Source: a virus
Taxonomy: Duplodnaviria > Heunggongvirae > Uroviricota > Caudoviricetes
Strand: one strand, 5' to 3'
Virus record (IMG/VR): IMGVR_UViG_3300036790_000265
Location: 1-64,000 of that record
Length of the DNA stretch: 64,000 nt
The notes under the pieces are model-generated. The model did not search any database and was not told the DNA's origin. It was given only the letters and a program-made list of their open reading frames with translations. The translations under genes and the position numbers were made by a program. Below are positions 1 to 53,275 of the stretch, piece by piece. Within the stretch, counting starts at the first letter, position 1. Every line of letters begins with the position of its first letter.

Positions 1-150
1 TGGATGCAGATGGCGGCCCAGTCCTGGCTGGTGCTCACCCTCACCCATTCCAGCACCGACATCGGGTTCGCGGTGGCGTTGCAGACCATCCCGGTACTCC
101 TCCTCGCTCCGTACGGTGGCGTGGTACCGGATACGTTAGGTGTAGCATAG
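1..150 (+). pseudogene. 5' fragment of host MFS-transporter gene, reading frame ends ...LLAPYGGVVPDTLGVA*; disrupted by element insertion
   Basis: Frame-1 translation WLVLTLTHSSTDIGFAVALQTIPVLLLAPYGG matches the TM1-loop-TM2 signature of MFS_3 transporters, then diverges and stops just before the serine recombinase. Confidence 0.4.
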
Positions 151-155
151 GGCGC

Positions 156-1676
156 ATGGAACGGCCTGGCAACATCCGGGGCGGCCTTCGCGCCGGGATC
201 TACGACCGGGTGAGCAAAAAGCCCACTGGCAAAGAGGCACGCTCGGTGGCCAGCCAGAACAAGGCCAACCGTCTCGCATGCAACCGCTACGAATGGACGG
301 TGGCAGCCAAGTACGCCGACCCGGGCGTCTCGGCGTCCAGGCACGCCAAGACCAAGCGCCGCGACGACTACGAGCGGCTGCGCGATGACGTGCGAGCCGG
401 CACGCTGGACGTGATCGTGTTCTGGGAATCTTCCCGCGGCGACCGGAAACTGGGGGAGTGGGCGTCGTTCCTGGATGACTGCCGGGACCACCACGTCTTG
501 ATCTACATCACCTCCCACGACCGGCTCTACGACATGTCCCGCAGCCGGGACCGGCGCAGCCTCGCCGAGGACGGGGTGGACTCCGAGTACGAGACCGACA
601 AACTGTCCGAGCGCGTCACGCGCGGGCTGAACACGAGCCTCGAACTCGGCCGCCCACACGGCGTGACCCCGTTCGGGTGCGTCCGCACATACGACCGGTT
701 CCGCAACCTCGTGTCTCAGGGGCCCGACCCGGCAACAGGGTGGGTGCCCCGCGAGGTGATCACGCGGGTCGCGGACATGGAACCTGTCTCGGCGATCCGG
801 AAAGATATGGCCGCCCGCGGTGCGCCGACCGCCCGCGGCGGCCCGTGGACAGACGCGCTGGTGCGCAAGTTCGCGTTGAACCCTGCCTACGCGGCCCTGC
901 GGATCGGGCCTGACGGGGAGTTCATCGACGGGATGCAAGGCTGGGAGCCGGTTGTCCCCCGGGATGTCTGGTTGCGTGCCTACCAGCGGGTGACGTCGAA
1001 CCAGCACGGGAGCTGGCACCCGGGCGCGAAGCACCTTTACCTGCTGTCGTACCTGGCGATGTGCGGGAACTGCGGCGGCCCGTTGCGCAGGCAACCGGTC
1101 CGGGGCCTGGAGATGTACAGCTGCAAAGACAACTCGTGTGCGTCGATCAAGATGGAGTGGCTTGACGCGTACGTGCTCGGGCGCCTGTGCCGGCTCCTCG
1201 ACGACCCGGCGTTCTGGGCCGAGTTGCTGCGGGAGGACGACGGGCCGGTGAAAGCAGCCCGCGCGAAAGTGGCCGGGCTACGACTCCAGTTGCAGGGTTT
1301 TGAGGCCAAAGCCATCGAAGGCGAGATCGACCCGGAATCGTTCGCGACGATCTCCAAAGGACTTCGGGCCAAGATCAGGGAGGCAGAAGGCGGCGTTACC
1401 CCAGTGACCGTGCCAGCGCACCTGATCGCCCTTCATGAGGACGATTCGGGGACGTCGGTCCGCGAACTGGTGGAATCCTGGCCGCTCGCTACCCGGAAGG
1501 CGACCCTCCGCGATTTCTATGACGGGGTGATCCTCCTGCCGGCTGGAGGACGCGGCCGGCAGGCTGGGTTCAACCCGGGCCGGGTGCTGCTCGTCCGGAA
1601 GGGTCAGCCGGTGTGGGGAAGCGGCGCGACTCGTCAGGCAGCGTCTTGGGTTCGGGTGGTTGAGGCGGCAGCCTGA
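156..1676 (+). CDS. large serine recombinase (phage integrase type)
   Basis: N-terminal resolvase domain (GIYDRVSKK...S nucleophile region), recombinase domain, zinc ribbon CGNCGGPL..C, C-terminal coiled coil; 506 aa. Confidence 0.9.
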   Translation: MERPGNIRGGLRAGIYDRVSKKPTGKEARSVASQNKANRLACNRYEWTVAAKYADPGVSASRHAKTKRRDDYERLRDDVRAGTLDVIVFWESSRGDRKLGEWASFLDDCRDHHVLIYITSHDRLYDMSRSRDRRSLAEDGVDSEYETDKLSERVTRGLNTSLELGRPHGVTPFGCVRTYDRFRNLVSQGPDPATGWVPREVITRVADMEPVSAIRKDMAARGAPTARGGPWTDALVRKFALNPAYAALRIGPDGEFIDGMQGWEPVVPRDVWLRAYQRVTSNQHGSWHPGAKHLYLLSYLAMCGNCGGPLRRQPVRGLEMYSCKDNSCASIKMEWLDAYVLGRLCRLLDDPAFWAELLREDDGPVKAARAKVAGLRLQLQGFEAKAIEGEIDPESFATISKGLRAKIREAEGGVTPVTVPAHLIALHEDDSGTSVRELVESWPLATRKATLRDFYDGVILLPAGGRGRQAGFNPGRVLLVRKGQPVWGSGATRQAASWVRVVEAAA

Positions 1677-1912
1677 TCCGCCGCGGGCCCGGGTTCGGGG
1701 AGCTTTCCCAGGAGCCGATGGTAGGCGAGCGCGTGTCTCACGCTCGGCCGCCGGACGCCGGATTCCCACTGCGACACGGTGGACGGGGCGACGTCGAGTG
1801 TTGCGGCGACGTCGGTCTGGGTGATCATGGCGGCCTCGCGGCGGGCGCGGGCGGTCCCGTTCCCCAGCTCAATGCGGATCTGCGCTACGGCAGTCAGTTC
1901 GGATTGCTTCAC
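1634..1912 (-). CDS. XRE-family HTH transcriptional regulator
   Basis: MITQTDVAATLDVAPSTVSQWESGVRRPS is a classic Cro/CI HTH. Confidence 0.7.
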   Translation of the reverse strand: MKQSELTAVAQIRIELGNGTARARREAAMITQTDVAATLDVAPSTVSQWESGVRRPSVRHALAYHRLLGKLPEPGPAADQAAASTTRTQDAA

Positions 1913-2034
1913 ACGATCATGTTACGGATCGTGCGTCAGATCGAAAACAGTCGATTCACGAGGTAATCACATCCGTGTTACTCTAGTTACCGGGAATGTA
2001 GATTCCCGGTAGTTGACCCCGTTTCGGAGGCCCC

Positions 2035-3033
2035 GTGAGTGATCTTGAAATCGTTCCGCACAGCGACCTCGCCGCAACATCCGCGACACCACTGCGGCGC
2101 CGCGACGAGAACCCGTACTGGGTGTACCTCGCACGGTTTAGAGGCGAGTCCGAGCGCACCATGCGACGGTGCCTCGACCGGATTGCGGCGATCATCCTCA
2201 GCCGCTCCCCCGCCGACCCTGAACATGATCTTGGTGAGCAGATCCCGTGGGAACAGATCCGCTACGCCCACGTGGCCCGGCTCCGGTCCGAGTTCGCGGT
2301 GCAGTGGCAGTCGCCCAGCAGCGCGAACAAGCACCTGTCCGCGCTGCGCGGCGTACTCCACGAAGCGTGGCGACTCGGGCTGATGACCGCTGAGGACTAC
2401 CAGCGGGCCATCGACGTCGAGAACGTCAAGGGCAGCCGCCTGCTGGCCGGCCGGAACATCCACGCCGACGAGACCACCGCCATGCTCCGCGTCTGCCTGG
2501 CCGACGAGAACGCCCCGCTCGGCATCCGCGACGCCGCACTGGTCGCCGTGCTCCAGTCCACCGGCATCCGCCGCGCTGAGGCCGCAGCCGCGCTGATCGA
2601 GCGGTACGACCCCGGTGAGCGTGGGCTCAAGCTTGTCGGCAAGGGCAACAAGGAACGGATCGTGTTCATCCACCCGGGCGCGGTTCCCTACCTGGATGGG
2701 TGGCTTGTCCTGCTCGGTGTACGCCGCGGCGCGATGTTCCGGCGCGTCGACCGGTGGGGCAACATCGGTGCTGAGCGGCTGAGTGCGCGGGCGATCGGCT
2801 ACATCGTCAACCATCGCCGTGAGCAGGCCGGGCTGCCGAAACTCTCAACGCACGATTTTCGCAGGACTTTCATCGGCGACTTCATCGATGCCGGCGGTGA
2901 CCTTGTGCAGGCGCAGAAGCTCGCCGGGCACGCGTCGGCCACGACTACGGCCGCCTACGACCGGCGCCCAGACCGCGCGCTGCGTACGGCTGTGGACAAA
3001 CTGAGCCTGCCCCCGAGGGAGAAGCTCCGATGA
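2035..3033 (+). CDS. tyrosine recombinase / integrase (XerC/D-like)
   Basis: C-terminal catalytic box LSTHDFRRTF...LAGHASATTTAAYDRR (R..HxxR..Y). Confidence 0.85.
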   Translation: MSDLEIVPHSDLAATSATPLRRRDENPYWVYLARFRGESERTMRRCLDRIAAIILSRSPADPEHDLGEQIPWEQIRYAHVARLRSEFAVQWQSPSSANKHLSALRGVLHEAWRLGLMTAEDYQRAIDVENVKGSRLLAGRNIHADETTAMLRVCLADENAPLGIRDAALVAVLQSTGIRRAEAAAALIERYDPGERGLKLVGKGNKERIVFIHPGAVPYLDGWLVLLGVRRGAMFRRVDRWGNIGAERLSARAIGYIVNHRREQAGLPKLSTHDFRRTFIGDFIDAGGDLVQAQKLAGHASATTTAAYDRRPDRALRTAVDKLSLPPREKLR

Positions 3034-3048
3034 GTAATCCTTGTAGTC

Positions 3049-3069
3049 GGCCGATGAAGGGGATCGGCC
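3049..3069. terminator. hairpin GGCCGAT-n7-ATCGGCC downstream of the integrase; possible bidirectional terminator
   Basis: 7-bp perfect inverted repeat between convergent genes. Confidence 0.3.
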
Positions 3070-3070
3070 T

Positions 3071-3217
3071 CTAACCGAGCAGCGCCCCCGCGATCGTGCC
3101 CAGGGTTGTGGCCGTCTTCGGGGGCACGCCCATCTGCTCGAACACGTCGGTCGCGATCTGGTCAACGACCCATCCGACAACGGCACCGATCAGGATGCCG
3201 ACGATTTTCTTCTCCAT
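3071..3217 (-). CDS. small hydrophobic protein (48 aa)
   Basis: MEKKIVGILIGAVVGWVVDQIA... has a predicted TM helix; not in the ORF track (below 60 aa). Confidence 0.3.
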   Translation of the reverse strand: MEKKIVGILIGAVVGWVVDQIATDVFEQMGVPPKTATTLGTIAGALLG

Positions 3218-3378
3218 GGATCTACGGTACTCGGCTGTGCTGACATCCCCGGGCGCCTCAACGCCCGGACATGGGCGGCACGGCAGCCCAAAGAATCTTG
3301 GTCTGGTGCGTGGGGTAACTGCGGGCCAGCGACCTATGAGCGAGCGAACACAGCTACAACCCGGGCGCGCAGGGTCTT

Positions 3379-3669
3379 CTATGCTTCGTCGGCCCCTCGA
3401 TCTGGATCATCAGGGTGCCGCTCGGCGCGCAGCATGTACTTGAGGATGCTCTGCTGGCACTCGGTGAGGGCCTGTAGCAGTTCGATGTCGGTCAGGCCGT
3501 GGTCGCGCTGGAACTTGTCCACGAGTATCTTGAGCTCGGCGCGCGCCTGGTGGGCCCGATCGGCGCGGGGGTGCTCGTGGAGTTGCGGTGGCCCGACGAG
3601 CATCCGGGCGATCGGGCCGAGCCCTTGTAGCGATGGGTGCGGTAGCTCTTGCCTCTCGCGGTCGCTCAT
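3379..3669 (-). CDS. hypothetical protein
   Basis: ORF with ATGA overlap to the downstream gene; start chosen at an internal Met. Confidence 0.4.
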   Translation of the reverse strand: MSDRERQELPHPSLQGLGPIARMLVGPPQLHEHPRADRAHQARAELKILVDKFQRDHGLTDIELLQALTECQQSILKYMLRAERHPDDPDRGADEA

Positions 3670-8277: not shown

Positions 8278-9045
8278 TCAGGCCGCCTTGAGGCAGGGCA
8301 GGACCGGGATGGCCTCGGCCAGCCAGTTACCAGGCTCGGCCGCGAACCGGGGAGCTGGCATCGGTAGCCAGTGCGCCCACGGCAAATCGGTCTCGGAGGT
8401 GATACGGCGGCAGATGCGGCCGCGGCGGGCCCCTTCCGGGTAGTCGTTCCAGTTGATCCCGGCTTCCTGCCACAGCAGCTCTTGCATCTGGTCGCCGTTC
8501 AGGCCGTGGAGCCGGCTGTGCGAGAAGCAGGCTTGGGCGGCCATCGCGATCGAGTTCCGTACCGCGTCGCGTTGCCGCCACAGGAAGTAGTTCGCCACCT
8601 CGACCGCGCTGGGGATGGTGAACACCCGCCCGTCGAACATGGCCGGATGCGGCGGCAGCGCTTGCACCAGGCCGGGGATGGTCCGGGCGCGGTCGTTGAA
8701 CGTTGCGGTGGCCAACGCGGCGGCCGACGACGCGATCTTCTGGACGTTCCCGCCGAACCACGGTTCGGTTTGGAAGGTGGCGAAGTCGGTGAGCAGCAGC
8801 GACACTTCGTCGGATTGCTGGTAGGAGAACACGGTCCCGCTGATCTGCGAGCACAACGCGACAGCAACCAGGTTGATCGCCTGCATGACCCCGTAGTCGA
8901 ACGGGCGTTTAGCCTGGCGCAGGTAGGTGTGGAACGCGCGGCCGTCGACGCGGATGATCGTGTAGGTGCGGCGTGGAAGCACCTGCCGGGTTGGGGTCTC
9001 GTAGGCCTTCATACGGTCGCCGAGGGCTGTGCTGTCACTGCTCAA
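8278..9045 (-). CDS. Thg1-like protein (tRNA-His guanylyltransferase family, 3'-5' nucleotidyl polymerase)
   Basis: YTIIRVDGRAFH, QQSDEVSLLL and FDGRVFTIPS...YFLWRQRDAVRN align with Thg1 motifs VVVRLDGRNFH, GQSDEYSFVF and FDGRVVVYPS...YLSWRQADCH. Confidence 0.8.
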   Translation of the reverse strand: MSSDSTALGDRMKAYETPTRQVLPRRTYTIIRVDGRAFHTYLRQAKRPFDYGVMQAINLVAVALCSQISGTVFSYQQSDEVSLLLTDFATFQTEPWFGGNVQKIASSAAALATATFNDRARTIPGLVQALPPHPAMFDGRVFTIPSAVEVANYFLWRQRDAVRNSIAMAAQACFSHSRLHGLNGDQMQELLWQEAGINWNDYPEGARRGRICRRITSETDLPWAHWLPMPAPRFAAEPGNWLAEAIPVLPCLKAA

Positions 9046-9395: not shown

Positions 9396-10230
9396 GGAGA
9401 GACCGCCTCTCCCGGGCCGGGCCGGTCTCGGGTGACCGCCAGTCGCCGAGATCAGGCGGTGGCGGTGGGATCACGTCGCCCGCGCCGAGGGCGACGACCT
9501 CGCGGGCGGTGAACGGGCCGGCCGTTGCCAGCGCGGGCAGCACGAGCGGCCAGGTGAGGTGTTCGCCGTGGGTCCTGGTCACCCACTCGGCGTCTGGCCA
9601 CGCGGGCACCTCGGCCGGTTCCCACGTGAACGTGAGCGCGCGGTCGTCGTCGCCTGGGTTGTACTGCCACAGGTACGAGCCTTCGTCGTCAGGCGGCCAG
9701 GTGGCCTCATACCAGCCAGACGCAGGAGCCACATAGCCGCCGAGAATCACCGAGGCCCAGAAGCCGATGACATCTGGGTCGATGTCCCGCACGGTGTAGA
9801 CGCCCATAGGGGACAACGTCGTTGGATCAGACCCCGGGCAAGTGCCGTAGCGAACCTCTGGCAGGCCTTCCAACTCTCGGAGGCGGTTCAACGTCATGCA
9901 CCCGTACGACACGACATCGAACGAGCGGACGATCGGCTCACATTCGGCGTAGATCCAGCCGAGCAGACCGGAGACGGCGCGAGTTTGGGAGCCTCGTACC
10001 CAGCCGGCGTAAGGGCTGTCGTGCCAGTTCTGCGCGGCGACGTCGGCGACCGCGAGCCAGGCGGCGTATCCGTCCAGGCCGGTGTCGTGCATGACCTGAC
10101 GTACGGTCTCGATGTCGCGGGGCGGCAGGTGCGGGAACACGCGGCCGGTGCAGCGCATCGCGTCCTCGCTGACCGTCCAGTCGTCGAGGGCGCCGTCGAT
10201 CGCGGCTAGGACGCTAGCGACATCAGGCAC
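9385..10230 (-). CDS. hypothetical protein (281 aa)
   Basis: ORF between the Thg1-like and RtcB genes; GTG start in cccGTGCCTGATg context. Confidence 0.45.
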   Translation of the reverse strand: MPDVASVLAAIDGALDDWTVSEDAMRCTGRVFPHLPPRDIETVRQVMHDTGLDGYAAWLAVADVAAQNWHDSPYAGWVRGSQTRAVSGLLGWIYAECEPIVRSFDVVSYGCMTLNRLRELEGLPEVRYGTCPGSDPTTLSPMGVYTVRDIDPDVIGFWASVILGGYVAPASGWYEATWPPDDEGSYLWQYNPGDDDRALTFTWEPAEVPAWPDAEWVTRTHGEHLTWPLVLPALATAGPFTAREVVALGAGDVIPPPPPDLGDWRSPETGPARERRSLRGQ

Positions 10231-10236
10231 GGGCCG

Positions 10237-11409
10237 CTACTCTCCCTTAACGTTCACGATCTGCCGCAGCGTGTGCACGACCTCAACGAGGTCGGCCGCG
10301 TCGGCCATCACCTGATCGACTGGCTTGTAAGCGCCGGGGATCTCGTCCAGGAACGCATCGCTGTGCCGCCATTCGATGCCCTCCATTGCGGTGTCGAGCT
10401 GCTCGCGGGTGAACGTCTTGCGGGCCGAGTTGCGGCTGTGCATCCTGCCAGCACCATGCGGCGACGAGTTGAGTGCCAGCCGGTTTCCCTTTCCCCGCAC
10501 GACGTACGAGGCGGTGCCCATCGAGCCGGGAATCAGGCCCGGCGTGCCGTCGCTGGCGTCGATCGCGCCCTTGCGGCTCAGCCAGACTTTCTTGCCAAAA
10601 TGGGTCTCCTGCTCCGTGTAATTGTGGTGACACTGCACCGCCTCCAGGCCGGTGACCGGCATGCCGGTCCAGGCGTCCAGGCACAGAAGGACGCGGTGCA
10701 TCATCTCCTGCCGGTTCAGCAGGGCGAAGTGCTGCGCCCAGCGCAGGTCGCGGATGTAGGCCCAGAACTCGTCGTCGCCCTCGACCAGGTAGGCGAGGTC
10801 TGGGTCGGGGAGGCTGATCCACCGCTTCTTGCACTGCTGCTGGGCGATCTTGATGTGGCGCATGGCGAGCTTGTTGCCGACGCCGCGCGAGCCGCTGTGC
10901 AGGAACGCCCAGACGTGGCCGTGCTCGTCGAGGCTGATCTCGATGAAGTGGTTCCCGCTGCCCAGCGAGCCGAGTTGCAGCCGCCAGTTCGGGGCGATGG
11001 CCTCCGCGCTGGCCGCGCCATCGCCGAACTCCTCCAGGTCGGCGATCCGCTGCTCGGTCGCGGCGCCGAAGACGGCCTCGTTGTAGACGCCGACCGACAG
11101 CGGGATGGCCTGCTCGATGGCCTCGCGCAGCCTGCTCAGGTGCGGCAGCCCGCGCACGTCCGCAGCGGTCAGGTGGGTGCGCACGGCATGCATGCCGCAG
11201 CCGATATCGACGCCGACCGCTGCCGGCATGATCGCACCGAGCGTCGGGATCACGCTGCCCACGGTCGCGCCCTTACCGAGGTGCGCGTCCGGCATCAGCG
11301 CGATGTGCGGGTGGATGAACGGCATCGTCGACGCCAACTCGGCCTGGGTGCGCGTGTTCGGCTCCAGGATCGACGCCCAGTTGATCAGGCGTTTCGTGAT
11401 CTGCTCCAT
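10237..11409 (-). CDS. rtcB: RNA-splicing ligase RtcB (3'-phosphate/5'-hydroxyl RNA ligase)
   Basis: Near full-length colinearity with E. coli RtcB: MPDAHLGKGATVGSVIP, VGVDIGCGM, GSGNHFIEI, HSGSRGVGN, CHHNY, PGSMG, HGAGR. Confidence 0.95.
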   Translation of the reverse strand: MEQITKRLINWASILEPNTRTQAELASTMPFIHPHIALMPDAHLGKGATVGSVIPTLGAIMPAAVGVDIGCGMHAVRTHLTAADVRGLPHLSRLREAIEQAIPLSVGVYNEAVFGAATEQRIADLEEFGDGAASAEAIAPNWRLQLGSLGSGNHFIEISLDEHGHVWAFLHSGSRGVGNKLAMRHIKIAQQQCKKRWISLPDPDLAYLVEGDDEFWAYIRDLRWAQHFALLNRQEMMHRVLLCLDAWTGMPVTGLEAVQCHHNYTEQETHFGKKVWLSRKGAIDASDGTPGLIPGSMGTASYVVRGKGNRLALNSSPHGAGRMHSRNSARKTFTREQLDTAMEGIEWRHSDAFLDEIPGAYKPVDQVMADAADLVEVVHTLRQIVNVKGE

Positions 11410-11644
11410 GACCTGCCTATCTCGGATAGTGGCGCAAGGCCGAGTCCGTCACTGTGTACTAAACCCGCAGTCTCACCAGGCATTCCCTGGCAGCTTCCGC
11501 AATCCACGAAAGGGCCGGACGACCTTCCGGCCGTCCTCGCGCTCGATCAGCACGTTCCGGGGTCCGCCTCCCGGTCCCCAGCGGACCAGCACCGTGACCG
11601 GCTGGCCCCGCTCCAGGTAGGTGCGGCCGACCATGCTGGACCGG

Positions 11645-13405
11645 TCAGGCATCGACGCTCCTGGCATGCTGGGCCAGCGTCTCATCGGCGACCATCTCGC
11701 TGTAGCCGCTGATCAGCTCCAGCGTCCGCAGCCGTGACAGGGCGTTAGAGAAGGTACTGCTCGTCACCGAGTAGCCGGTCGCTGCGGACAGGTGGTCCTT
11801 GGTGGCCGGTGCGGGCCACGCATCAAGGAGTGCGCGCAGGATCGCCCGTTCCGACTTGCCCAGCCGGCTCATCCAGTACTCGATCAGGGCGTCGCCGGTC
11901 GGCAGCGGTTCCCACTGGTCACCTAGCGCCGAGACCCCGGCCTCGGTGATGGTGATGGGGTTGCTGCGATTGATCAGGCCGCCGACGCGCAGCGAGGACA
12001 GCGTGTTCCCGAACGTGCTGCTTTTCACCGAGTACCCGGAGAGGGTCGCGATCTGGTTCTTGCTGCGGCCGTCCGGGAACTGGGCGAGTACGGTCAGCAC
12101 GGCCCGTGCCGCCTTGCCCAGCGTCATCTCCTCTGGAGAGCCGGCCGGTAGTACTGCGGGCTGCGGTCGCGGCACTGTGGCCGGTGTGGCCTCCGGTGCG
12201 GCCGGTTCCGGCCGGGCGGTGGGCACCGGGCGTGCGGTGGCACGGCTGATGGCTATCTCCAGTCCGTTCGCGACGTCGCGAAGTGCGGTGATGGCCTGCT
12301 CGACGGCAGCCAGGTCGCCGGGCGTGAGCACGGAGACTTCCACACGCGCGGGCGGCTTGGCCCGCTCGGCGGCAAGTTCCGCCCGCAGGGCCGCCACGTC
12401 CTCGCTGCTGGTGCTGTCGCGAGCCTTCGCCGCGATCTGGCGCTGAAGCTCGGCGACCTGGCGGCGCAACGCCTTCGGGTCGTCCTGTGCGGCCTTCTCC
12501 GTGACCTCGGCCATGCGCTCGGTGAGCGCGCCCAGGTCGATGTCGGCCAGCGAGGCGACCGGCGCGGACTTGCGCATCGTCGGGGTCGCGCCCGAGTCGA
12601 ACGTGGACCGCTGCCGGAACCGCACCCGCTGCACCGCCGGCTGGCCTTCGCGGGCCAGCCAGTGCGGCGAGCACACCCACGCCTCGCCGTCGTCCAGGCC
12701 GGGCAGGGAACCCACCAGCTCGTGGGCGACGGCGTGGTAATCAACCCAGCCGAGGATGGCCTTGCGGTCCTGCGGGCTGGTGGTGCGCAGTGCGATCATC
12801 GTGCCGACCTGGGTCAGCGCGTCCTTGTTCACCACGGCCGACCGCTGGGAGATGAGCGTCACGCCCAGGCCCCGGCTGCCGCCCTGCTTGACCAGCTTGG
12901 TCCACGCGCCGACGCATTTAGCCTGCTCGCCGCGGACGGTCTGCGGGATGAACTCGTCGGCTTCCTCCAGGAACAGGTGGCGGGGCACCGGGTTGCGGCC
13001 GTGCAGCCGGAACAGGTGGTCGGCGAGGTCGGTGAGGAACCGCATCTGCGCGGCCTTGGATGGGAACTCGCTCACGTCCAGGACGCAGGTCAGGTTCTGG
13101 TCACAGATCAGCTCCGCGATCAGCTTCCCCGCCTCGGGCACCAGCGGCATGTCGCCGTGCAAGCCGCCGAAGATCGGGATCGGCAGCCCATCGCCTTTGC
13201 CGTCCGCCGACGAGCGCAGGCCCCACCAGTCGCCCTTGGGGTCGATGGCGACCCACGGCAAACCGGCGCGGTACATCTCCTCGGCCATCACCGCTGCCGC
13301 GTTCGATTTGCCGGCGCGGCGGACGGCCAGCAGGGCGATCGACTGGGTGATCGCGTCCAGTGGGAGGGTGAGCCGGTCGGCCACCCGCAAGCCGCTACCT
13401 GCCAT
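11645..13405 (-). CDS. HerA/DUF87-like P-loop ATPase with two C-terminal winged-helix repeats
   Basis: Walker A AVRRAGKS, Walker B-like FLEEADEF, duplicated ...GYSV(K/T)SSTF(G/S)N(T/A)LS(S/R)LR... segments at the C terminus. Confidence 0.6.
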   Translation of the reverse strand: MAGSGLRVADRLTLPLDAITQSIALLAVRRAGKSNAAAVMAEEMYRAGLPWVAIDPKGDWWGLRSSADGKGDGLPIPIFGGLHGDMPLVPEAGKLIAELICDQNLTCVLDVSEFPSKAAQMRFLTDLADHLFRLHGRNPVPRHLFLEEADEFIPQTVRGEQAKCVGAWTKLVKQGGSRGLGVTLISQRSAVVNKDALTQVGTMIALRTTSPQDRKAILGWVDYHAVAHELVGSLPGLDDGEAWVCSPHWLAREGQPAVQRVRFRQRSTFDSGATPTMRKSAPVASLADIDLGALTERMAEVTEKAAQDDPKALRRQVAELQRQIAAKARDSTSSEDVAALRAELAAERAKPPARVEVSVLTPGDLAAVEQAITALRDVANGLEIAISRATARPVPTARPEPAAPEATPATVPRPQPAVLPAGSPEEMTLGKAARAVLTVLAQFPDGRSKNQIATLSGYSVKSSTFGNTLSSLRVGGLINRSNPITITEAGVSALGDQWEPLPTGDALIEYWMSRLGKSERAILRALLDAWPAPATKDHLSAATGYSVTSSTFSNALSRLRTLELISGYSEMVADETLAQHARSVDA

Positions 13406-13622
13406 GACGACCCTCCAGTTTGATCACGTTCTCTCCTCCGTTGCGCCTCTTGCGCCGGCTGGCCAGTATCAGCCCCACGATCTCGGCCACCCTCGGATCA
13501 CGGCGGGCCTGCTCTGCGTAGGCACGCAGGGCACGACGGCGCTGCTCGGCCACGGTGGTCCGCTCGATGATGGCGAGGGTGCGCAAGGTCAGCTCGTCTG
13601 GCTCGGTGAGGTGGTCAGGCAC
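13395..13622 (-). CDS. small hypothetical protein (GTG start, VPDHLTEP...)
   Basis: GTGCCTGA stop-start junction. Confidence 0.3.
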   Translation of the reverse strand: MPDHLTEPDELTLRTLAIIERTTVAEQRRRALRAYAEQARRDPRVAEIVGLILASRRKRRNGGENVIKLEGRHGR

Positions 13623-14148
13623 GGGCTTGCTCCCTGCTCGCGAACTGGCGCAGGTCGAACAGCGCACCGGCCAGGTCCCACGGTGGCACCAGCACCGGAT
13701 GGCGGCCACCGCGCGCCGGGCCGATGACGCCGTACTCTTCCAGCAGCAGGAGCAGCCGGCCGGCCTTGACGAAGCCGACGTGCGCCTTCCGCTGGATGAC
13801 CCAGCACTCGGCGCGCTGGGTGTTCACGACCACGCGGGCAGCATCCTCGAGCATGCCGAGATCGGGGCCGATCGGCATGCTCGCCCAGGCCAGCGCTGTG
13901 GCGCGGAGGCGGCTCGCCTGCTCGCGGTAGGCGGCGGCCATGTCGCAGCCGTAGGTGTGGCTGTCGTTGCGCATCTGGGGAGCGTGGACTTTCAGCGGCC
14001 ACCAGCGCGGGCTCTCGTTGACGTCCCGGTACGGCGGCAGCCGGTGATCCTCGTACCGGTCTCCCGGCAGGATCGGTTTACGGCACTGGGCGCAGGTGTG
14101 CCCGGTCCGGGCCGTGCGGACCGCGACAGGGATGATCGTGTCGGCCAT
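13615..14148 (-). CDS. protein with FtsK-gamma-like winged-helix DNA-binding domain
   Basis: C terminus VGFVKAGRLLLLLEEYGVIGPARGG resembles the FtsK gamma domain (compare [22 protein letters not shown] in the FtsK-like protein at 49048-51183). Confidence 0.45.
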   Translation of the reverse strand: MADTIIPVAVRTARTGHTCAQCRKPILPGDRYEDHRLPPYRDVNESPRWWPLKVHAPQMRNDSHTYGCDMAAAYREQASRLRATALAWASMPIGPDLGMLEDAARVVVNTQRAECWVIQRKAHVGFVKAGRLLLLLEEYGVIGPARGGRHPVLVPPWDLAGALFDLRQFASREQARA

Positions 14149-14468
14149 CAGCAGGGCAACTCCGTCTCCTCGATCTCGGCGAACCAGACCCCGGCCCGGC
14201 CGCGCACTGGGTCTTCCACCCACCAGCCGCGGCCGTCCCGGATGCTGTCCCGCCACCAGACCAGCTCGGGCTTCACAGCGACTGCGGAGGCGTAGGTGTG
14301 CCGTTTGGCCACCACGTCGGCGAGCGCTTGGGCTCGTTCAGGGTCGTGGGTGCCGAGCACAAGCACGCTGGACGGGATCTCATCTTCGTCACCGACGATG
14401 TGGGCGACCAGTTTGCGGGGCCGGTACAGCTTCCCGTTCGGGCGCTCGATCGCGGGCAGATCAGGCAC
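14148..14468 (-). CDS. hypothetical protein
   Basis: AGGAGG RBS followed by GTG start (VPDLPAIERP...). Confidence 0.4.
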   Translation of the reverse strand: MPDLPAIERPNGKLYRPRKLVAHIVGDEDEIPSSVLVLGTHDPERAQALADVVAKRHTYASAVAVKPELVWWRDSIRDGRGWWVEDPVRGRAGVWFAEIEETELPC

Positions 14469-20114: not shown

Positions 20115-20486
20115 TCACTCGACCGCCTCACACGACTTGCAGATCCACCGGTCCGGGTCGTCCAGATCGCGTCGGCAGGTGCGCCGCTCCTCGCAGCACC
20201 AGCAGAGCTGATTGCGCTTCTCCTCCCGCCCCGGCAGCGGCTCAGGCCCAGGCTCGGGCAGTGGGACCGCACCAACGCGCTCGCGGTAGATCGCCCGCAC
20301 CGCCTCGTCCCGCTCAGCCAGCGCCGCCACCAGATCGGCCTCCGAGAGGTCCGTCGCGACCTGCCGGAGCATCGGCCCGAACTCGGCCACACACTGCGGG
20401 CACGGGCTGGCCGGTGAGTCTGACTGGTTCCGGCAGCCGGGGAGTGCACACTCGGCGAACAGAACGAGCTGGCCGACTTCCGTCAT
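20115..20486 (-). CDS. zinc-finger-rich hypothetical protein
   Basis: Multiple CxxC pairs. Confidence 0.4.
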   Translation of the reverse strand: MTEVGQLVLFAECALPGCRNQSDSPASPCPQCVAEFGPMLRQVATDLSEADLVAALAERDEAVRAIYRERVGAVPLPEPGPEPLPGREEKRNQLCWCCEERRTCRRDLDDPDRWICKSCEAVE

Positions 20487-21304
20487 GCTGCACTCCAATC
20501 CAGGCCAAGGGAGTCCTGCTCGCCGACCGTGACAAGCCGCGACAAGAGGTCGGCGCGCCACTGGGAGGCGTAGATCAAACAATTGGCGCAGTTCTTGTGC
20601 GTGTGGCCGGGTAGCGGCGGGTTACGCCGCGCCTCATAGCTCCAGGCCATCGAGTCGGCCGAGATGAGCTTGTGCCCAAACGACCGCAATCCCTGGGTCT
20701 TCACCCCGAACGCGTGCACCGCATACTCGGGGGTCAGGGCCTCGATCAGCATGCTGATCCGCGCGGTCCCCTGCCGCCGGCACACCGACCCGACCCCGAC
20801 AACCGGATAGTCCGCCAGCTTCACCCCGGCCGCGGCGTACAGGTCAGCGCAGCGGAGGTATTCGCCGATCGTCCAGCCCTGCAACACGGGCATGAACGGG
20901 CACTCGCTGTCGCTGTACGCAGGCCAGAGGTTCACGAGCTGGAGGAAGTTCTCAACTGTCCGCCGCTGGTGCTCACCAACGCTCAGGTGGGTACCGGGGC
21001 AGCCCGCGCCGCCCTGGATGATCCACGGCTCGCACATCCAGTCCTGCGGCGCTGCCCACTCCAGGTGCCCGATCTCAGTGTCGTAGCGGGCCACGGCCGC
21101 GCAGTACTCGGCCGGGGTGGTGCGCCACTCCCCGAACTTGGACAGTTCGGTGAAGCCGCCGCTGTCGAGCGCCCAGCCGTGTGTGGACGGCTGGAAGGTC
21201 TTGTAGCGGGACAGCGCGCGGTGGCCAACGAACATCGGGAAGTCGGCGGCGGGGGTCCACAGCCAGTGGGGCTGGTGGGAGCCGAGGTAGAAGTGGCAGG
21301 TCAC
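20483..21304 (-). CDS. TGT-superfamily transglycosylase-like protein (tRNA-guanine transglycosylase / DpdA-like)
   Basis: WALDSGGFTE matches the TGT active-site motif LTDSGGFQV; VVGVGSV matches MGVGKP; CxxC near the C terminus. Confidence 0.5.
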   Translation of the reverse strand: MTCHFYLGSHQPHWLWTPAADFPMFVGHRALSRYKTFQPSTHGWALDSGGFTELSKFGEWRTTPAEYCAAVARYDTEIGHLEWAAPQDWMCEPWIIQGGAGCPGTHLSVGEHQRRTVENFLQLVNLWPAYSDSECPFMPVLQGWTIGEYLRCADLYAAAGVKLADYPVVGVGSVCRRQGTARISMLIEALTPEYAVHAFGVKTQGLRSFGHKLISADSMAWSYEARRNPPLPGHTHKNCANCLIYASQWRADLLSRLVTVGEQDSLGLDWSAA

Positions 21305-25421: not shown

Positions 25422-25670
25422 TTAGGCGGTGCGGCGGCTGCTGACGGGGAGGCCATTCGGCAGGAACCGGGCTGGGGAGAAGTCACGCGGCTCGGATCCG
25501 GGGGTGTGCGCGAGCTGCACGAGGGAGATCGCGATCTTGCTGTGGACGTGCCCGTTCGTCACGGCCTGGCCGATCACGGCGCGGACTTCCTGCTCGTCCC
25601 AGTCGGGGCGTTCGCTACGGACGTAGGCGACGAGGAGATCGGTGGTGCTCGCGGTCGTGGTCTCGCTCAT
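25422..25670 (-). CDS. hypothetical protein
   Basis: ORF. Confidence 0.4.
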   Translation of the reverse strand: MSETTTASTTDLLVAYVRSERPDWDEQEVRAVIGQAVTNGHVHSKIAISLVQLAHTPGSEPRDFSPARFLPNGLPVSSRRTA

Positions 25671-26449
25671 GCCGCTGACCCAACTTCCGGCTCCGGCAGG
25701 CGCTCCCCCGACGATGTGACCTCGTACAGCACTTCACAGGAGCGGACCTTGACCTTCGTGTTGTCCAGCACGACCACGTCGGCCAGCGCCACCCGGCAGG
25801 CCAGGTAACGCTTTGACGGGGTGTACAGGTAGGACCCGGCGATGCGCGGGTACGGGCTGAGATGAAGGCCGTACCCGCACTCGGTAACCGCACGGAAGTC
25901 AGGTGCCGTGACGGTCTCGCCGATCGGGTACCGCATGCCGTGGCCGGAGACCAGGTTCTCGTCCACGGCCTTGAACAAGGTCATGTGACCGTCCTCAACG
26001 GGGATGCCCTCGAACTCAGCCCACTCAGCAGGGCTCACGGTCTCGGGCACCCGGATGATCTGGCCACCAGTGATCTTCGGCCGGTTCGTGTGCTGGTAGA
26101 CGGTCGCGTACTTCGCGGCGGTGACGGTGCCGTCGTAGGCGTGGACGACTGCGGTGCCTACGGCATGCACGCTGCCGGAGCCGGTCACCCGCCCCACGCT
26201 GCCGGAGCCGTCCACCCACTCCACGCGGCCGGAGCCGTCCACCCACTCCACGCGGCCGGAGCCGGTCACCCACCCCACGCGGCCGGAGCCGGTCACCCGC
26301 CCCACGCGGCCGGAGCTGATTTCCCTGACGTATCCGGTCACGATGTGCAGGCATGCGCCCGGGTCGTTCTTGTGCTGGTCGTACTCGGTTTGGTTGTGGA
26401 TTTCGATGCAATTCACGCTGAGAGTTCCTTCGTTTTCGAGGGGTGACAT
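25667..26449 (-). CDS. hypothetical protein with nonapeptide tandem repeats (SGRV[GE][RW]V[TD]G x6)
   Basis: ORF; internal 27-bp DNA tandem repeats. Confidence 0.5.
   Translation of the reverse strand: MSPLENEGTLSVNCIEIHNQTEYDQHKNDPGACLHIVTGYVREISSGRVGRVTGSGRVGWVTGSGRVEWVDGSGRVEWVDGSGSVGRVTGSGSVHAVGTAVVHAYDGTVTAAKYATVYQHTNRPKITGGQIIRVPETVSPAEWAEFEGIPVEDGHMTLFKAVDENLVSGHGMRYPIGETVTAPDFRAVTECGYGLHLSPYPRIAGSYLYTPSKRYLACRVALADVVVLDNTKVKVRSCEVLYEVTSSGERLPEPEVGSAA
26174..26320. repeat. 27-bp direct tandem repeat, about 5.5 copies (gccggagccgKYcacccRcYccacgcK), in-frame inside the CDS
   Basis: Read directly from sequence. Confidence 0.85.
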
Positions 26450-27354
26450 TTCGGGCAGGGGCCGAGGTCCCGGCCGTCGTCTTGGGCTTGGCGACGACGG
26501 CTTGGTTCGTGGCACTCACCGCACCAAGGCGGCCGGGCCGGGCCGGGGAGCGCGAACCGGGTTACCGGGTCCGCGTCGGCTTCGATCGCTGCGCGGCAGT
26601 ACGCGGCGGGATCGTTCGGTTTGCGGCGGCCGAGGATAGTCCGGGCGATCTTCGCGGCGGTGTCAGCGTCGATGCTGCGGCCGGTGGTTTCATCGATCGT
26701 TTCGATGATCGTTTTCAAAATCAGATCATCATCGGTTGAACCGTTCTCGGCGTAATGGCTGGTGTGAGATCTGACTGATGGATCTGTGGATCTTTTAGGT
26801 TCGGATCTGGATCTGGATAGGGCGATTGGCTGGCGATCGGTATGTGACCGCTCGGAGCGATCGGTATCCGATTCACTATCCGATCGCATACCGATAACTG
26901 ACCGATCACTAGCGGGCGGGCAGTACGGACAGTTCGGGTTGGTGTGGCCGTCCGTATGCCACCTGCGGTGGTTGCCCAGCTTCCCGCCGTCCGATTTGGC
27001 TGCTATCGCGTTGGCCTGCGCCGTCGTCGCCTCAGCCTTCGTCGGATGCAACCAGAAGTAGTCGTGGATGACCCACCCGTCCACGTCCACCGGAGCGGGG
27101 CAGTCCGGTGACGGGCATTCGTGCCGGGCGTCATGCCACACCCCGCGTTGTGGTCGCGCGCACTCGGCCGCGAGCTTCGCAGGCTGACGTAGCCGGGGCA
27201 CCACCAGGGCCACGTCGTCGCGTGGGATGACACCATCGGTGCCGTTGGCGCGGCACCAGAAGATCGCGGTCGTGTGCAGGCGGAACGCGGCGTCCGACAG
27301 CCCGGCAACCTTCCGGTTGAACGGGAACTGGTCATCGAACGGGACCCAGGACAT
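26413..27354 (-). CDS. hypothetical protein (possible replication initiator), central low-complexity SDSESDTDRSERS region
   Basis: ORF; contains an AT-richer iteron-like segment at 26700-26900. Confidence 0.45.
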   Translation of the reverse strand: MSWVPFDDQFPFNRKVAGLSDAAFRLHTTAIFWCRANGTDGVIPRDDVALVVPRLRQPAKLAAECARPQRGVWHDARHECPSPDCPAPVDVDGWVIHDYFWLHPTKAEATTAQANAIAAKSDGGKLGNHRRWHTDGHTNPNCPYCPPASDRSVIGMRSDSESDTDRSERSHTDRQPIALSRSRSEPKRSTDPSVRSHTSHYAENGSTDDDLILKTIIETIDETTGRSIDADTAAKIARTILGRRKPNDPAAYCRAAIEADADPVTRFALPGPARPPWCGECHEPSRRRQAQDDGRDLGPCPKCHPSKTKELSA

Positions 27355-45582: not shown

Positions 45583-45840
45583 ATGTCCAGATCGGCAGAA
45601 CCGCCGAGAACACCCAATACGGCGAGATGGGCAGAAGCCTTGGACACTCCCCAGCAGGTCGAGGACGAGCTGCTGCCGCCTGCTGCGGTAGCCAAACGCT
45701 TCGGCGTGGATCCGCGCACGCTGCGCGGCTGGGCGGCGGCAGGGAAGATCAACGCCCGCCGCACGCTCGGCGGCCACCGCCGCTACCGGGCATCCGAGGT
45801 CAGCGCGTTGCTCGCCGCTACAGAAGCGGCCACATCATGA
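45583..45840 (+). CDS. xis: excisionase-family (MerR-like) HTH protein
   Basis: LLPPAAVAKRFGVDPRTLRGWAAAGKINARRTLGGHRRYRASEV. Confidence 0.7.
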   Translation: MSRSAEPPRTPNTARWAEALDTPQQVEDELLPPAAVAKRFGVDPRTLRGWAAAGKINARRTLGGHRRYRASEVSALLAATEAATS

Positions 45841-45924
45841 CTGGCCGCGCAAACAACAGCGGCCCAGGTGTGTCACCACCTGAGCCGCTCACAACCAGAA
45901 CCCCTGCTCGAAAGGGACTAGCCG

Positions 45925-46119
45925 ATGGCAACGGTAGCAATTCACCGCCCCCCAGCCAAGCATCATGTCGCCCGTGTGACCGCCGTCATGCTCCGGCGCC
46001 GGTTCAGGGAGGGCGACCGAGCCCCCTGCCACCGTACGGAACGGCTGGCCGACGACCCGCGGGAGCCCGCGAAGGTGTTCTGCCCCGAGGGCGGCGAACT
46101 GTACCTGCGGACGGCCTGA
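45925..46119 (+). CDS. small hypothetical protein
   Basis: AAAGGGA RBS. Confidence 0.35.
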   Translation: MATVAIHRPPAKHHVARVTAVMLRRRFREGDRAPCHRTERLADDPREPAKVFCPEGGELYLRTA

Positions 46120-46276
46120 TTACCCGAACCTCCCGATCGTCCCTGCCGGGCACCCGGCAGGGACCCGGAAGCCGTCAGGCGCGCGGACGCTGGGGCTTCG
46201 CCCCCGTCGCCCTGGCCGTGGCATCCACTCCCCGGGGTGCCTGCCGCGCGCCTGACGGCCGAAGGAGAACCGCCTG

Positions 46277-46810
46277 ATGGCCGGCAAGAACGGCGCAGGG
46301 AAGGCCCTGTTCGCAGCGTTCATCGTCGCCGGACTGGCCTCCGGAGCGCACGCTGGCGCAAGCACCGGCAGCCACAACGGAGGCGATCCCGACTCGATGG
46401 CGGCCACTCCCGCTGGTGCCGCCAACGCGACGAGCGCCGTCGCCTACGCCAAAGCGCAACTCGGTTGCCCGTACACGTGGGGTGGCACCGGGCCGTGCTC
46501 GGCCGGGTACGACTGCTCGGGCCTGGTGCAGCAGGCATGGGCGGCAGCTGGTGTGAGCATCGAGCGCACCGCTGACGAGCAGTGGAACTCGCTGCGTCAC
46601 ATCCCGGCCAGTCAGCGCGCGGTGGGGATGCTCGTGTTCGCGCCTGGGGCGGACGGTACATGGTCTGCACCGGGCCACGTCGGGATGCTTCTCGGCCGCT
46701 GGAGCGTGATCGAGGCTTACGCCACCGGCTACCCGATCAAGATCGTCTCGCTCAGCACCTTCGGCGCGAAAGCAGGCGGGATCATCGGCTACGCGGAGGT
46801 ACAGCAATGA
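46277..46810 (+). CDS. secreted NlpC/P60-family peptidoglycan endopeptidase
   Basis: Signal peptide; YAKAQLGCPYTWGGTGPCSAGYDCSGLVQQAWAAAGV...GHVGM. Confidence 0.85.
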   Translation: MAGKNGAGKALFAAFIVAGLASGAHAGASTGSHNGGDPDSMAATPAGAANATSAVAYAKAQLGCPYTWGGTGPCSAGYDCSGLVQQAWAAAGVSIERTADEQWNSLRHIPASQRAVGMLVFAPGADGTWSAPGHVGMLLGRWSVIEAYATGYPIKIVSLSTFGAKAGGIIGYAEVQQ

Positions 46811-47250
46811 CCCGCCTGCGCGGGGCCGCCGCCGCGGCCGTCGTCGGGATCACGCTGGCCGCAGTGTCGCAAAGCCACGGCGGCCACCAGGTCTTGACGC
46901 ACGTCGCCGCGGCCATGCAGCAACCGGGCACCAGTTCCACCAGCCCGGCCGCGAACAAGGCTCTCGCGGACCGGATGGCGGCCGCGGCCGGGTGGGACAG
47001 CCGGGAGATCGGCTGCCTGAACGAGGTCTGGCAGCGCGAGTCCGGGTTCCGGGTCACGGTGTGGAACTACCAGGGCGCGGACGCTTACGGCATCCCGCAG
47101 GCGAACCCCGCCGACAAGATGGCCAGCGCCGGCCCGGACTGGCGCACTGATCCCGCGACCCAGATCAAGTGGGGCCTCGGCTACATCAAGGATCTCTACG
47201 GCTCGCCCTGCGGGGCCTGGTCGCACGAAAAATCGCACGGCTGGTATTAG
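46807..47250 (+). CDS. secreted lysozyme-like / transglycosylase-like protein
   Basis: Signal peptide; CLNEVWQRESGFRVTVWNYQGADAYGIPQANP. Confidence 0.5.
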   Translation: MTRLRGAAAAAVVGITLAAVSQSHGGHQVLTHVAAAMQQPGTSSTSPAANKALADRMAAAAGWDSREIGCLNEVWQRESGFRVTVWNYQGADAYGIPQANPADKMASAGPDWRTDPATQIKWGLGYIKDLYGSPCGAWSHEKSHGWY

Positions 47251-47287
47251 GCCAGCCGGCACCAACCAAGGAAGGGAACCACCCGCC

Positions 47288-47539
47288 ATGTCTGGCACCA
47301 CCACCGCAGTTGCACAAAAGCTGCATCCGGTCGTCCTGACCGCGCACAAGGTCACGCTCACCGCGCTGGCCCCGGCTAAGCACGCCGTGACCAACGCGTG
47401 GGCCGACCAGCCTGGCCACCCGCACATGACCCCGAACGAGGGGGCCGTTCTCGCCGGCGTGATCCTGCTCCTCATCGTGATCGGGGTCATCTTCGCCATC
47501 TCCACCGCCATCTCCACCGCCATCGACTCTCGCCGCTGA
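47288..47539 (+). CDS. small membrane protein
   Basis: TM LAGVILLLIVIGVIFAI. Confidence 0.45.
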   Translation: MSGTTTAVAQKLHPVVLTAHKVTLTALAPAKHAVTNAWADQPGHPHMTPNEGAVLAGVILLLIVIGVIFAISTAISTAIDSRR

Positions 47540-47557
47540 TCTTCGAAGGAACACCTG

Positions 47558-48371: not shown

Positions 48372-48402
48372 CCAGCGGACCACCTCATCGTCTTAAGGAC
48401 TC

Positions 48403-51485: not shown

Positions 51486-51496
51486 GCAAGATCATC

Positions 51497-53215: not shown

Positions 53216-53255
53216 TGGGAGCGGGTGTGGTGTCGAATACGTTTGCGACGACACG

Positions 53256-53275
53256 CCGGCGGGGGAGCCCGCCGG
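53256..53275 (+). terminator. hairpin CCGGCGGG-ggag-CCCGCCGG after the paralog array
   Basis: 8-bp perfect inverted repeat. Confidence 0.35.

Follow-up and report, generated by a model that had tools for sequence, protein, structure and literature searches.

The DNA analysed here, referred to below as the window, is a stretch of 64,000 nucleotides (nt) that corresponds to positions 1 to 64,000 of the IMG/VR virus record IMGVR_UViG_3300036790_000265, assigned to the Caudoviricetes. It is high-GC DNA (66-71% GC) with no DNA similarity to known phages. Near its left end lie, in order, the 5′ part of a host major facilitator superfamily (MFS) transporter gene, a gene for a large serine integrase, a small helix-turn-helix (HTH) gene on the opposite strand, a dyad-symmetric site, and a gene for a Xer-like tyrosine recombinase. 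Both recombinases belong to known kinds; it is their pairing that is unusual to see, and we found no description of it in the literature. We consider it fairly probable that the window derives from a temperate actinophage that integrated in an MFS_3 gene by way of the serine integrase, and that the tyrosine recombinase constitutes a separate module for resolution or cyclisation. The chances that this is indeed the purpose of the tyrosine recombinase are, in our judgment, about even.

A Host MFS Gene Is Interrupted Next to a Serine Integrase Gene

Reading frame 1 at nt 1-147 encodes WMQMAAQSWLVLTLTHSSTDIGFAVALQTIPVLLLAPYGGVVPDTLGVA and ends in a stop codon at 148-150. This fragment matches positions 27-72 of the Pfam profile MFS_3 (E = 1.2e-3), with a score under the cut-off for what is a partial gene. 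A scan of species-representative genomes recovered 80 genomic loci with orthologues of the 49-amino acid (aa) fragment at 72-89% identity, mostly from uncultured Actinomycetota, Streptosporangiaceae, Solirubrobacterales, and Catenulispora. In the 18 of these 80 loci that were inspected, the frame runs on beyond the break as ...APYGGVV-ADR(V/T/A)DKRRLM for a further 304-507 codons, and one full-length orthologue (L069; loci are identified by such numbers throughout) encodes 434 aa that score 210 bits on MFS_3. The start codon of the orthologue maps 35 codons 5′ of the window start, and the window copy retains the equivalent of ~77 of ~434 codons, 42 of which are inside the window. Host homology ends at both the DNA and the protein level with GTGGT at nt ~125, after which the window reads ACCGGATACGTTAGGTGTAGCATAG. 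The MFS gene is interrupted at this point. The initial annotation had described a fragment covering transmembrane segments 1 and 2 (TM1-TM2) that is cut at ...APYGGVV/PDTLGVA*, and this description holds: intact orthologues read ADRxDKRRLM at the break, and none of the 18 inspected continues in frame through nt 150 with the sequence found in the window, where the frame is broken.

We assign nt 1-125 (plus strand) to the 5′ part of the host MFS_3 gene, comprising approximately codons 36-77 with TM1-TM2, on the basis of the MFS_3 match and the 80 orthologue loci. This segment would also serve as the B arm of a left attachment site (attL). Neither a scan for TM segments nor tblastn searches with four full orthologues located the remainder of the MFS gene, or attR, in the window. 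Neither recombinase occurs in any of the 80 orthologue loci; all are empty sites, and so provide no second lysogen. The host is likely to be Streptosporangiaceae-like.

The gene that adjoins the break (156-1676, plus strand, ATG start) encodes a large serine integrase of 506 aa. Its domains match Resolvase (PF00239; 62.5 bits, cut-off 23.3), Recombinase (PF07508; 23.7 bits, cut-off 21.1), and Zn_ribbon_recom (PF13408; 19.6 bits, under the cut-off of 25.3). Among 16 relatives of the integrase, the YDRVS motif with the catalytic Ser20 is invariant, as are the zinc-ribbon cysteines C303, C306, and C323, with C328 nearly so. The closest relative, at 52% identity, is encoded by L001, a 93-kb soil contig in which lysis genes lie 5′ of the integrase gene and early genes 3′ of it, which is the unintegrated arrangement. 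Like the phiC31 and Bxb1 enzymes, the window integrase combines a catalytic resolvase domain containing the serine with a recombinase domain and a zinc ribbon, its gene adjoins an att site, and its target is within a host open reading frame; a long direct repeat is not expected for such enzymes. In contrast to these similarities, it is only 31-35% identical to annotated phage integrases (those of Gordonia phages) and 52% to its best relative, and both its MFS_3 target and its att sequences are new. It is a phiC31/Bxb1-class enzyme with a new target.

The junction itself can be placed with some precision. Host homology extends to at least nt 125, and by nt 127-130 at the latest the sequence resembles the P′ arms of L001 and L051. 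The serine integrase crossover is therefore predicted to lie within nt 124-128, a placement good to within 2 nt. The predicted phage P′ arm of attL spans nt 127-155 (plus strand), includes TTAGGTGTAG at 135-144, and gives the truncated MFS frame its out-of-frame tail PDTLGVA*. A shared P′ motif, TAGGTGTA, is found 10-20 nt 5′ of the integrase start in the window and in L026, L003, L012, and L004; its counterpart in L001 is GGTGTATCATA. Left of this motif in L026, L003, and L012 is a truncated HNH-type gene that ends in ...QWCDAH. The window crossover falls 30 nt 5′ of the integrase start, and a related phage known in both its attP and attL forms (see below) has the same geometry. Because the MFS gene is truncated, a complete integrase gene adjoins the break, and the remaining sequence up to nt 64000 consists of phage genes, we regard nt ~100-155 with high confidence as the predicted attL (B-O-P′) of a serine integrase prophage. 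The initial annotation had likewise proposed the attL of a large serine integrase insertion that splits the MFS gene, and the intact orthologues, the junction geometry, and the shared P′ motif bear this out. At least 63.9 kb of the prophage is in the window; relatives measure 93-99 kb.

As a separate observation, the integrase relatives in L026, L003, L012, and L002 are inserted in an HNH-type gene; ~30-100 nt 5′ of each integrase start, the host frame ends in ...QWCDAH and gives way to the shared P′ motif.

A Xer-Like Tyrosine Recombinase Outside the Cre, XerC/D, XerS, and Brujita Families

The tyrosine recombinase gene (2035-3033, plus strand) encodes 332 aa with a Phage_integrase domain (65.4 bits) and a SAM-like core-binding domain (SAM_1, 20.7 bits, just below the cut-off). 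There is no arm-binding domain, and the protein is of the simple, Xer-like type. A complete XerC/D-like tyrosine recombinase had been noted after the serine recombinase from the outset, and both its completeness and its Xer-like character stand. The spacing given for the two genes is also accurate, although the 358-bp gap is not empty, as it holds the HTH gene described below. The catalytic set R-K-H-R-H-Y (R179/R180, K203, H273, R276, H299, and Y308) is invariant in 18 family members of 53-73% identity.

The window enzyme shares with XerC and XerD the presence of core-binding and catalytic domains only, together with the R-K-H-R-H-Y set, but it scores far below the equivalog cut-offs for these proteins (XerC, 106.4 bits versus 335; XerD, 77.6 bits versus 329.6), and likewise for XerS (51.3 bits versus 267). 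The closest solved structures are those of XerD and XerA, and the family profile is nearer to XerD/XerA (1e-17) than to Brujita gp33 (7.5e-11). Neither the window protein nor its family profile matches Cre. Searches of deposited phage genomes returned no close relatives and no Mycobacterium phage matches. Relatives are abundant in metagenomes, with 1214 at E<=1e-20, and the best match other than the protein itself is 75% identical, compared with 52% for the best relative of the serine integrase. Full-length identities of ~40-46% are observed with genes of a Thermobispora ‘plasmid’, Rubrobacter plasmids, and many small cyanobacterial plasmids, with the cyanobacterial plasmid genes (~40% identity) being listed as ‘site-specific integrase’. 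In the one such plasmid that was examined, Anabaena cylindrica pANACY.05, there are also genes for ParA and a toxin-antitoxin pair. In the contexts seen, the gene is borne by phages or plasmids, in contrast to XerC and XerD, which are encoded by the host chromosome and act at a dif site in the terminus under the control of FtsK. By these sequence tests, the window enzyme falls outside the Cre, XerC/D, XerS, and Brujita families.

A Dyad-Symmetric Site Accompanies the Recombinase Gene

Immediately upstream of the tyrosine recombinase gene is a putative tyrosine recombinase site of the core type, TACCGGGAAT-GTAG-ATTCCCGGTA, at 1988-2011 (plus strand). Its 7-6-7 core is CCGGGAA-TGTAGA-TTCCCGG at 1990-2009, and the site yields a folding z score of -3.9. 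The pattern CCGGGAA-N6-TTCCCGG occurs once in the 64-kb window, even when 2 mismatches are permitted. Comparable sites were found in a total of 13 loci, with one site each in L149, L150, L151, L152, L248-250, and L251-252 (loci of up to 21 kb). The distance from the site to the recombinase gene on its 3′ side is 25-450 bp, extending to as much as 1.9 kb where other genes of the operon lie in between. Across the 13 loci, the two arms co-vary symmetrically, and there are 12 different spacers, all of them asymmetric. Distant members have changed arms, such as CCGTAAA/TTTACGG in L253 and CCGGTAA/TTACCGG in L153, and the arms CACAGAA/TTCCCGG of L155 and of the Thermobispora element are imperfect. 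Because the site is kept in loci where the HTH gene is absent (L151, L155, and L232), the recombinase, and not the HTH protein, is the likely ligand of the 1988-2011 site.

The hexamer TACTCT at 1979-1984 (plus strand), 5 nt 5′ of the site and conserved in position, resembles a -10 element and may belong to the promoter of the recombinase operon. Most of the 13 loci have a TAtyCT-like element 5-7 nt 5′ of the site, and this element is clearest in the window, L149, L150, L151, L251, L253, and L153. A conserved cAGtTGAtC directly follows the right arm of the site. A scan with the sigma-70 consensus did not pick up the hexamer at 1979-1984. Given the -10-like element and the placement of the site, the site is predicted to overlap the promoter region of the recombinase operon.

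A pattern scan of IMG/VR for the site returned nine loci, of which two were real and came from contigs already in our set; the other seven lack a recombinase gene and were set aside as chance matches.

The HTH gene (1634-1912, minus strand), which had been missed earlier, occupies the gap between the recombinase genes and is divergent from the tyrosine recombinase gene. It encodes an XRE-type protein of 92 aa (HTH_3, E = 6.5e-13). The gene is convergent with the integrase gene and overlaps it by 43 nt (1634-1676), such that the last 14 HTH codons lie in the 3′ end of the integrase gene. Homologues with 42-49% identity occupy the equivalent position in L149, L150, and L253. The window protein is 15-19 residues longer than these homologues, which is consistent with replacement of the original 3′ end of the HTH gene by the integrase cassette. 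At the start of the HTH gene is another palindrome, CACGATC-N8-GATCGTG (1912-1933), which is a possible operator for the HTH protein.

The Recombinase Module Is Retained Among Phages with Different Integrases

Related large actinophages encode tyrosine recombinases of this conserved family at 53-75% identity, beside at least three unrelated clades of serine integrase or beside none. In L149, a 98.5-kb contig that is syntenic with the window, the HTH gene (minus strand) and the recombinase gene (plus strand) are followed by early genes that include RtcB; no serine integrase is present in the 11.8 kb seen, of which only ~0.8 kb is upstream. L150 carries a tRNA-Met, a serine integrase gene on the opposite strand, the HTH gene, and the recombinase gene. 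In both L248/L249/L250 and L251/L252, a serine integrase gene (plus strand), a small minus-strand gene, and the recombinase gene (plus strand) follow one another. The serine integrases of L248-250 and L251-252 are 41% identical to each other and have no significant similarity to that of the window. No serine integrase gene was found nearby in L253, L243/L244, or L245. Whether the serine integrase is unrelated to that of the window (L248 and L251), inverted (L150), or not detected nearby (L149, L253, L243, and L245), the identity of the tyrosine recombinase remains at 68-70%. These comparisons identify the tyrosine recombinase as the conserved component of this phage group, and the serine integrase as an apparently exchangeable cassette.

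In L001, the slot after the serine integrase gene is filled by a non-orthologous enzyme that is only 26% identical to the window tyrosine recombinase and whose best Protein Data Bank match is Cre, over its full length (E = 2e-14). In L151, the recombinase (10001-11527; 72% identical) is fused to an endonuclease VII domain and has an intact site, with host-like genes around it; this fusion may represent a domesticated copy or what is left of a prophage. We set aside the tyrosine recombinase beside the integrase relative in L051, which is at a contig end and resembles host XerC.

A further representative is encoded by the phage-plasmid NZ_CP039125.1 of Thermobispora bispora ZC4, whose genes include those for a portal protein, a prohead protease, a major capsid protein, ParA, DnaN, and ThyX. 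Its recombinase is 46% identical to that of the window, and one site is present in the 105.4 kb fetched of the 108,210-bp unit, with nt 100,001-102,859 unread. Cre/loxP in P1 and plasmid resolution systems are organised in this way, with a simple recombinase and a single adjacent site on a circular replicon that undergoes partitioning. This record (L246/L247/L232) was deposited as a 145-kb plasmid in which 37 kb is repeated at 99.98% identity, which looks like an over-circularised assembly.

The Site Is Independent of the Integration Event

A comparison of L248 and L249 bears on whether the site is used for integration. L248 represents a phage in its free, attP state, with the lysin gene, the serine integrase gene, the site, and the recombinase gene in this order. 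L249 is the same phage in its integrated state; it contains host MFS_1, ILVD, and UbiA genes, and a 108-aa stump of an AMP-binding gene abuts the serine integrase gene. Identity between the two sequences extends to 45 nt 5′ of the serine integrase start, and from there they diverge. The tyrosine site, CCGGGAA-TGGTTA-TTCCCGG, is identical in both, and their recombinase is 68% identical to that of the window. L248 3620-3670 and L249 6775-6823 form a natural attP/attL pair, with the crossover ~46-48 nt 5′ of the integrase start.

Other integrated contexts agree. In L162/L243, a provirus of 94.5 kb within a 302-kb contig, the recombinase gene is flanked by phage genes for 10 kb on both sides and is, by coordinates, ~28 kb from the nearer provirus end. 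The tyrosine site is intact, with both arms, in the window, L249, L151, and L149/L240, and is never at a junction. No copy of it was found in the ~800 kb of host-type loci fetched. The tyrosine site is independent of the integration event. Its unchanged state in L248/L249 and the window, together with the L162/L243 provirus, argues against a role for the recombinase as a Brujita-type integrase.

On the minus strand near the start of the L149 contig (~205-250), ~165 bp beyond the HTH gene, there is a sequence that resembles a tRNA T arm and acceptor 3′ end. Judged by eye only, this sequence could be what remains of an att site of the L149 prophage, although no tRNA was called there by ARAGORN or Rfam.

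A Model for the Tyrosine Recombinase and Its Alternatives

We propose that the two recombinases would divide their tasks as follows. The serine integrase would handle integration and excision at attL and attR, with the integration side being supported by position and analogy. The tyrosine recombinase and the single dyad site at its own promoter would form a self-contained cassette, in which two recombinase dimers may bind the 7-10-bp arms of two site copies. Two copies would exist only in a dimeric or terminally redundant circular phage genome. The asymmetric central bases would set the direction, and strand exchange over the 4-6-bp centre would resolve multimers to monomer circles or cyclise the genome. 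By binding at its own promoter, the recombinase may also autoregulate its gene and thereby limit its own synthesis. There is precedent for such reactions, as Cre acts at loxP in P1 and XerS at difSL.

Several points weigh against this proposal. The data include neither a recombination product of the tyrosine site nor any other sign of catalysis, and no ParA-type partition gene was found in the 64 kb, which leaves a plasmid-like phase unsupported for the window phage. Integration itself rests on one junction, with attR, attP, and attB of the window phage not seen. The palindrome in L001 has a chance probability of ~0.15 and is suggestive but weak alone. A palindrome that overlaps a promoter could be an autoregulatory operator and nothing else. 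Furthermore, the recombinase gene sits in a genome slot that is usual for integrases, the tRNA 3′-end-like fragment of L149 (seen by eye) is ~0.5 kb from the module, and simple tyrosine recombinases of actinophages, such as that of Brujita, can be true integrases (PMC8138268).

The last of these points form the basis of a different explanation, in which the tyrosine recombinase acts as an additional integrase, arm-less like that of Brujita, 1988-2011 is its attP, and the phage has two integration routes, with the serine route having been used here. Simple tyrosine recombinases do integrate some actinophages (PMC8138268), the gene occupies the customary slot beside a repressor-like HTH gene, several relatives have no serine integrase within 10 kb, and the L149 fragment would fit. 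However, the site is unbroken in each integrated context examined and absent from the ~800 kb of host-type loci, and the recombinase gene of L162/L243 is at least 10 kb from the provirus ends. The profile is also closer to XerD/XerA than to Brujita gp33, there are no Mycobacterium phage matches, and the family extends to non-integrated plasmids and a phage-plasmid. On balance, we think a second integrase unlikely. It is also conceivable, if rather more doubtful, that the palindrome is an operator only, through which the protein represses its own promoter while its recombination substrate is elsewhere or lost, making the protein a regulator or a relic. In most of the 13 loci, the site is placed as operators typically are, 5-7 nt 3′ of a conserved -10-like element and 5′ of the operon. 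On the other hand, the invariance of the six catalytic residues in the 18 members argues that catalysis has been retained, and a 7-6-7 geometry whose arms change together with the enzyme is what crossover sites have. Moreover, autoregulation and recombination are compatible at one site, as is known for the res site and tnpR of Tn3.

Three further explanations carry far less weight. The initial annotation had raised the prospects of a nested second element, an inversion switch, or a dimer-resolution system. That the HTH gene, the site, and the tyrosine recombinase gene make up a small mobile element nested in the prophage is very improbable, even though the endonuclease VII fusion in L151 has host-like surroundings, where a DUF6221 gene is all that accompanies it. 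Direct repeats are absent from the flanks of 1677-3400, the unit is syntenic with RtcB and other phage early genes in L149, and its position relative to early genes is constant in several phage lineages. Inversion between 1988-2011 and a second, inverted copy is scarcely credible. Tyrosine invertases of similar size, such as Rci, do exist, and 36 kb of the source contig is outside the window, where a partner site could lie. However, the 64 kb contain only one copy (with up to 2 mismatches), as does each of the related loci (up to 21 kb long), and there is one in the 105.4 kb obtained from the 108.2-kb unit of the Thermobispora phage-plasmid. Dimer resolution fits best among the three options, as an inference only. 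Finally, the MFS-phage junction might be an assembly chimera, in which case the phage would not be integrated here; the source is a Joint Genome Institute (JGI) metagenome contig with one junction visible. We hold this to be extremely improbable, as the break coincides with the crossover position of the integrase clade and of the related phage, 30-46 nt 5′ of the integrase start, and such a coincidence is unlikely to arise by chance.

Comparison with Established Resolution Systems

The preferred interpretation, in which the tyrosine recombinase forms a resolution or cyclisation module apart from the serine integrase, finds its nearest parallels in two established systems. Cre/loxP of P1, which has Dre/rox and Vika/vox as relatives, likewise pairs a simple tyrosine recombinase carried by a phage with a single inverted-repeat site per genome, located beside the recombinase gene. 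Relatives of the window enzyme are found on extrachromosomal elements that bear ParA, and a true Cre homologue fills the equivalent slot in the related phage L001. In contrast, the window enzyme is Xer-like, has His rather than Trp in its catalytic set, and shows no detectably greater similarity to Cre than to other tyrosine recombinases. Its site has arms of 7-10 bp and a centre of 6-4 bp compared to the 13-8-13 layout of loxP, and, unlike P1, the window phage also integrates by means of a serine integrase.

The second parallel is provided by XerS/difSL and XerH/difH, modules for dimer resolution that rely on a single recombinase, with one Xer-type enzyme acting at one imperfect palindrome, and XerD and XerA are the closest solved structures to the window enzyme. 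In XerS/difSL, the site is directly upstream of the recombinase gene. The window module differs in being borne by phages and plasmids rather than by the chromosome, and its enzyme is far under the XerC, XerD, and XerS cut-offs. The Brujita-type integrases are also simple two-domain tyrosine recombinases of actinophages that are encoded beside a repressor-like gene. However, the window enzyme is less similar to them than to Xer proteins and has no mycobacteriophage matches, and its site is intergenic, rather than within a repressor or HTH gene, and unbroken in integrated prophages. Our best reading, drawn by analogy, is that the tyrosine module most likely works in the manner of Cre/lox or XerS/dif resolution or cyclisation.

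Other Features of the Prophage

Two hairpins downstream of the tyrosine recombinase gene had been put forward as a possible second att/dif-like site. Both are present. The hairpin at 3049-3069, GGCCGAT-N7-ATCGGCC, has a 7-bp stem (-15.3 kcal/mol, z score -1.4), lies between convergent reading frames, and is probably a hairpin of the terminator type rather than an att site. The second, CCGGGCG-N6-CGCCCGG at 3248-3267, also has a 7-bp stem (z scores of -2.8 on the plus and -2.5 on the minus strand) and is not an att site. No terminator with a T tract and no promoter consensus was called at either hairpin. A core within 3034-3378 that is repeated elsewhere, as an att site might be, was not found; this region has no second copy in the window and is not conserved in any relative. 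Searches of the window for direct and inverted repeats also gave nothing that involves nt 1-3400. The relevant cis-acting site is the one upstream, at 1988-2011.

In the remaining prophage in the window (3379-64000), the minus strand carries genes for early functions, DNA metabolism, and recombination; there is also a block on the plus strand (45-54 kb) and one of lysis and unknown-protein genes, again on the minus strand (54.8-64 kb). Among the phage genes are those for DUF6221, RtcB, Thg1, a HerA-like ATPase, an FtsK-gamma protein, DpdA, and a helicase, as well as a ParB-like/methyltransferase fusion, DUF5131, RecT, FtsK/SpoIIIE, DUF2637, and a GH25 lysin. The FtsK gamma domain protein (213 aa; 13618-14256, minus strand; E = 1.3e-9) adjoins the HerA/FtsK-like ATPase (586 aa; 11648-13405, minus strand). 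Genes for a Thg1-like tRNA-His guanylyltransferase (8281-9045), an RtcB RNA ligase (10240-11409), and the 7-deazaguanine DNA modification protein DpdA (20486-21304), all on the minus strand, suggest functions in tRNA repair and DNA hypermodification.

The plus-strand block (45627-54398) encodes an SLT transglycosylase domain, DUF6524, a 711-aa FtsK/SpoIIIE protein (TraB-like), and DUF2637, and it resembles the transfer module of an actinomycete conjugative element inside the prophage. The repeat pairs 51849/52292 and 52722/53171 in this block mark paralogous small genes. Six tandem 27-nt repeats, which encode nine-residue repeats, occur at 26141-26343 in the gene for a DUF7666 protein (25670-26515, minus strand). 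ARAGORN called an 82-nt tRNA-Gln at 60877-60958 (plus strand) within a DUF6424 frame. This is probably a false positive that Rfam does not support, and Rfam reported no tRNA at the gathering score anywhere in the window.

Implications for Actinophage Recombination

The prophage offers a new large serine integrase whose attL is defined and whose attB, inside a conserved MFS gene, can be inferred, and enzymes of this type are useful as genome-engineering tools for actinomycetes. Its organization also indicates that adjacent recombinase genes need not signal a nested element. For the Xer-like family of phages and plasmids, which is abundant and uncharacterised, the present data provide a probable site and the rules for its variation, such that Cre/lox-like activity becomes testable.

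We also speculate that large soil actinophages may carry a complete phage-borne equivalent of the dif/Xer/FtsK system, composed of an autoregulated Xer-like recombinase, a dif-like site, and FtsK-type translocases, among them the protein with the FtsK gamma domain (13618-14256), which in bacteria is the domain that activates XerD. We regard this broader idea as improbable at present. If it is true, then integration, carried out by swappable serine integrases, and topology control, carried out by a conserved tyrosine module, would be separate yet co-located functions in these phages. It would also mean that nature holds a library of orthogonal recombinase-site pairs for high-GC hosts, with co-varying arms and at least 12 spacers. 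The main interest of this locus is the newly defined site family and the recombinase tool set that it could potentially supply.

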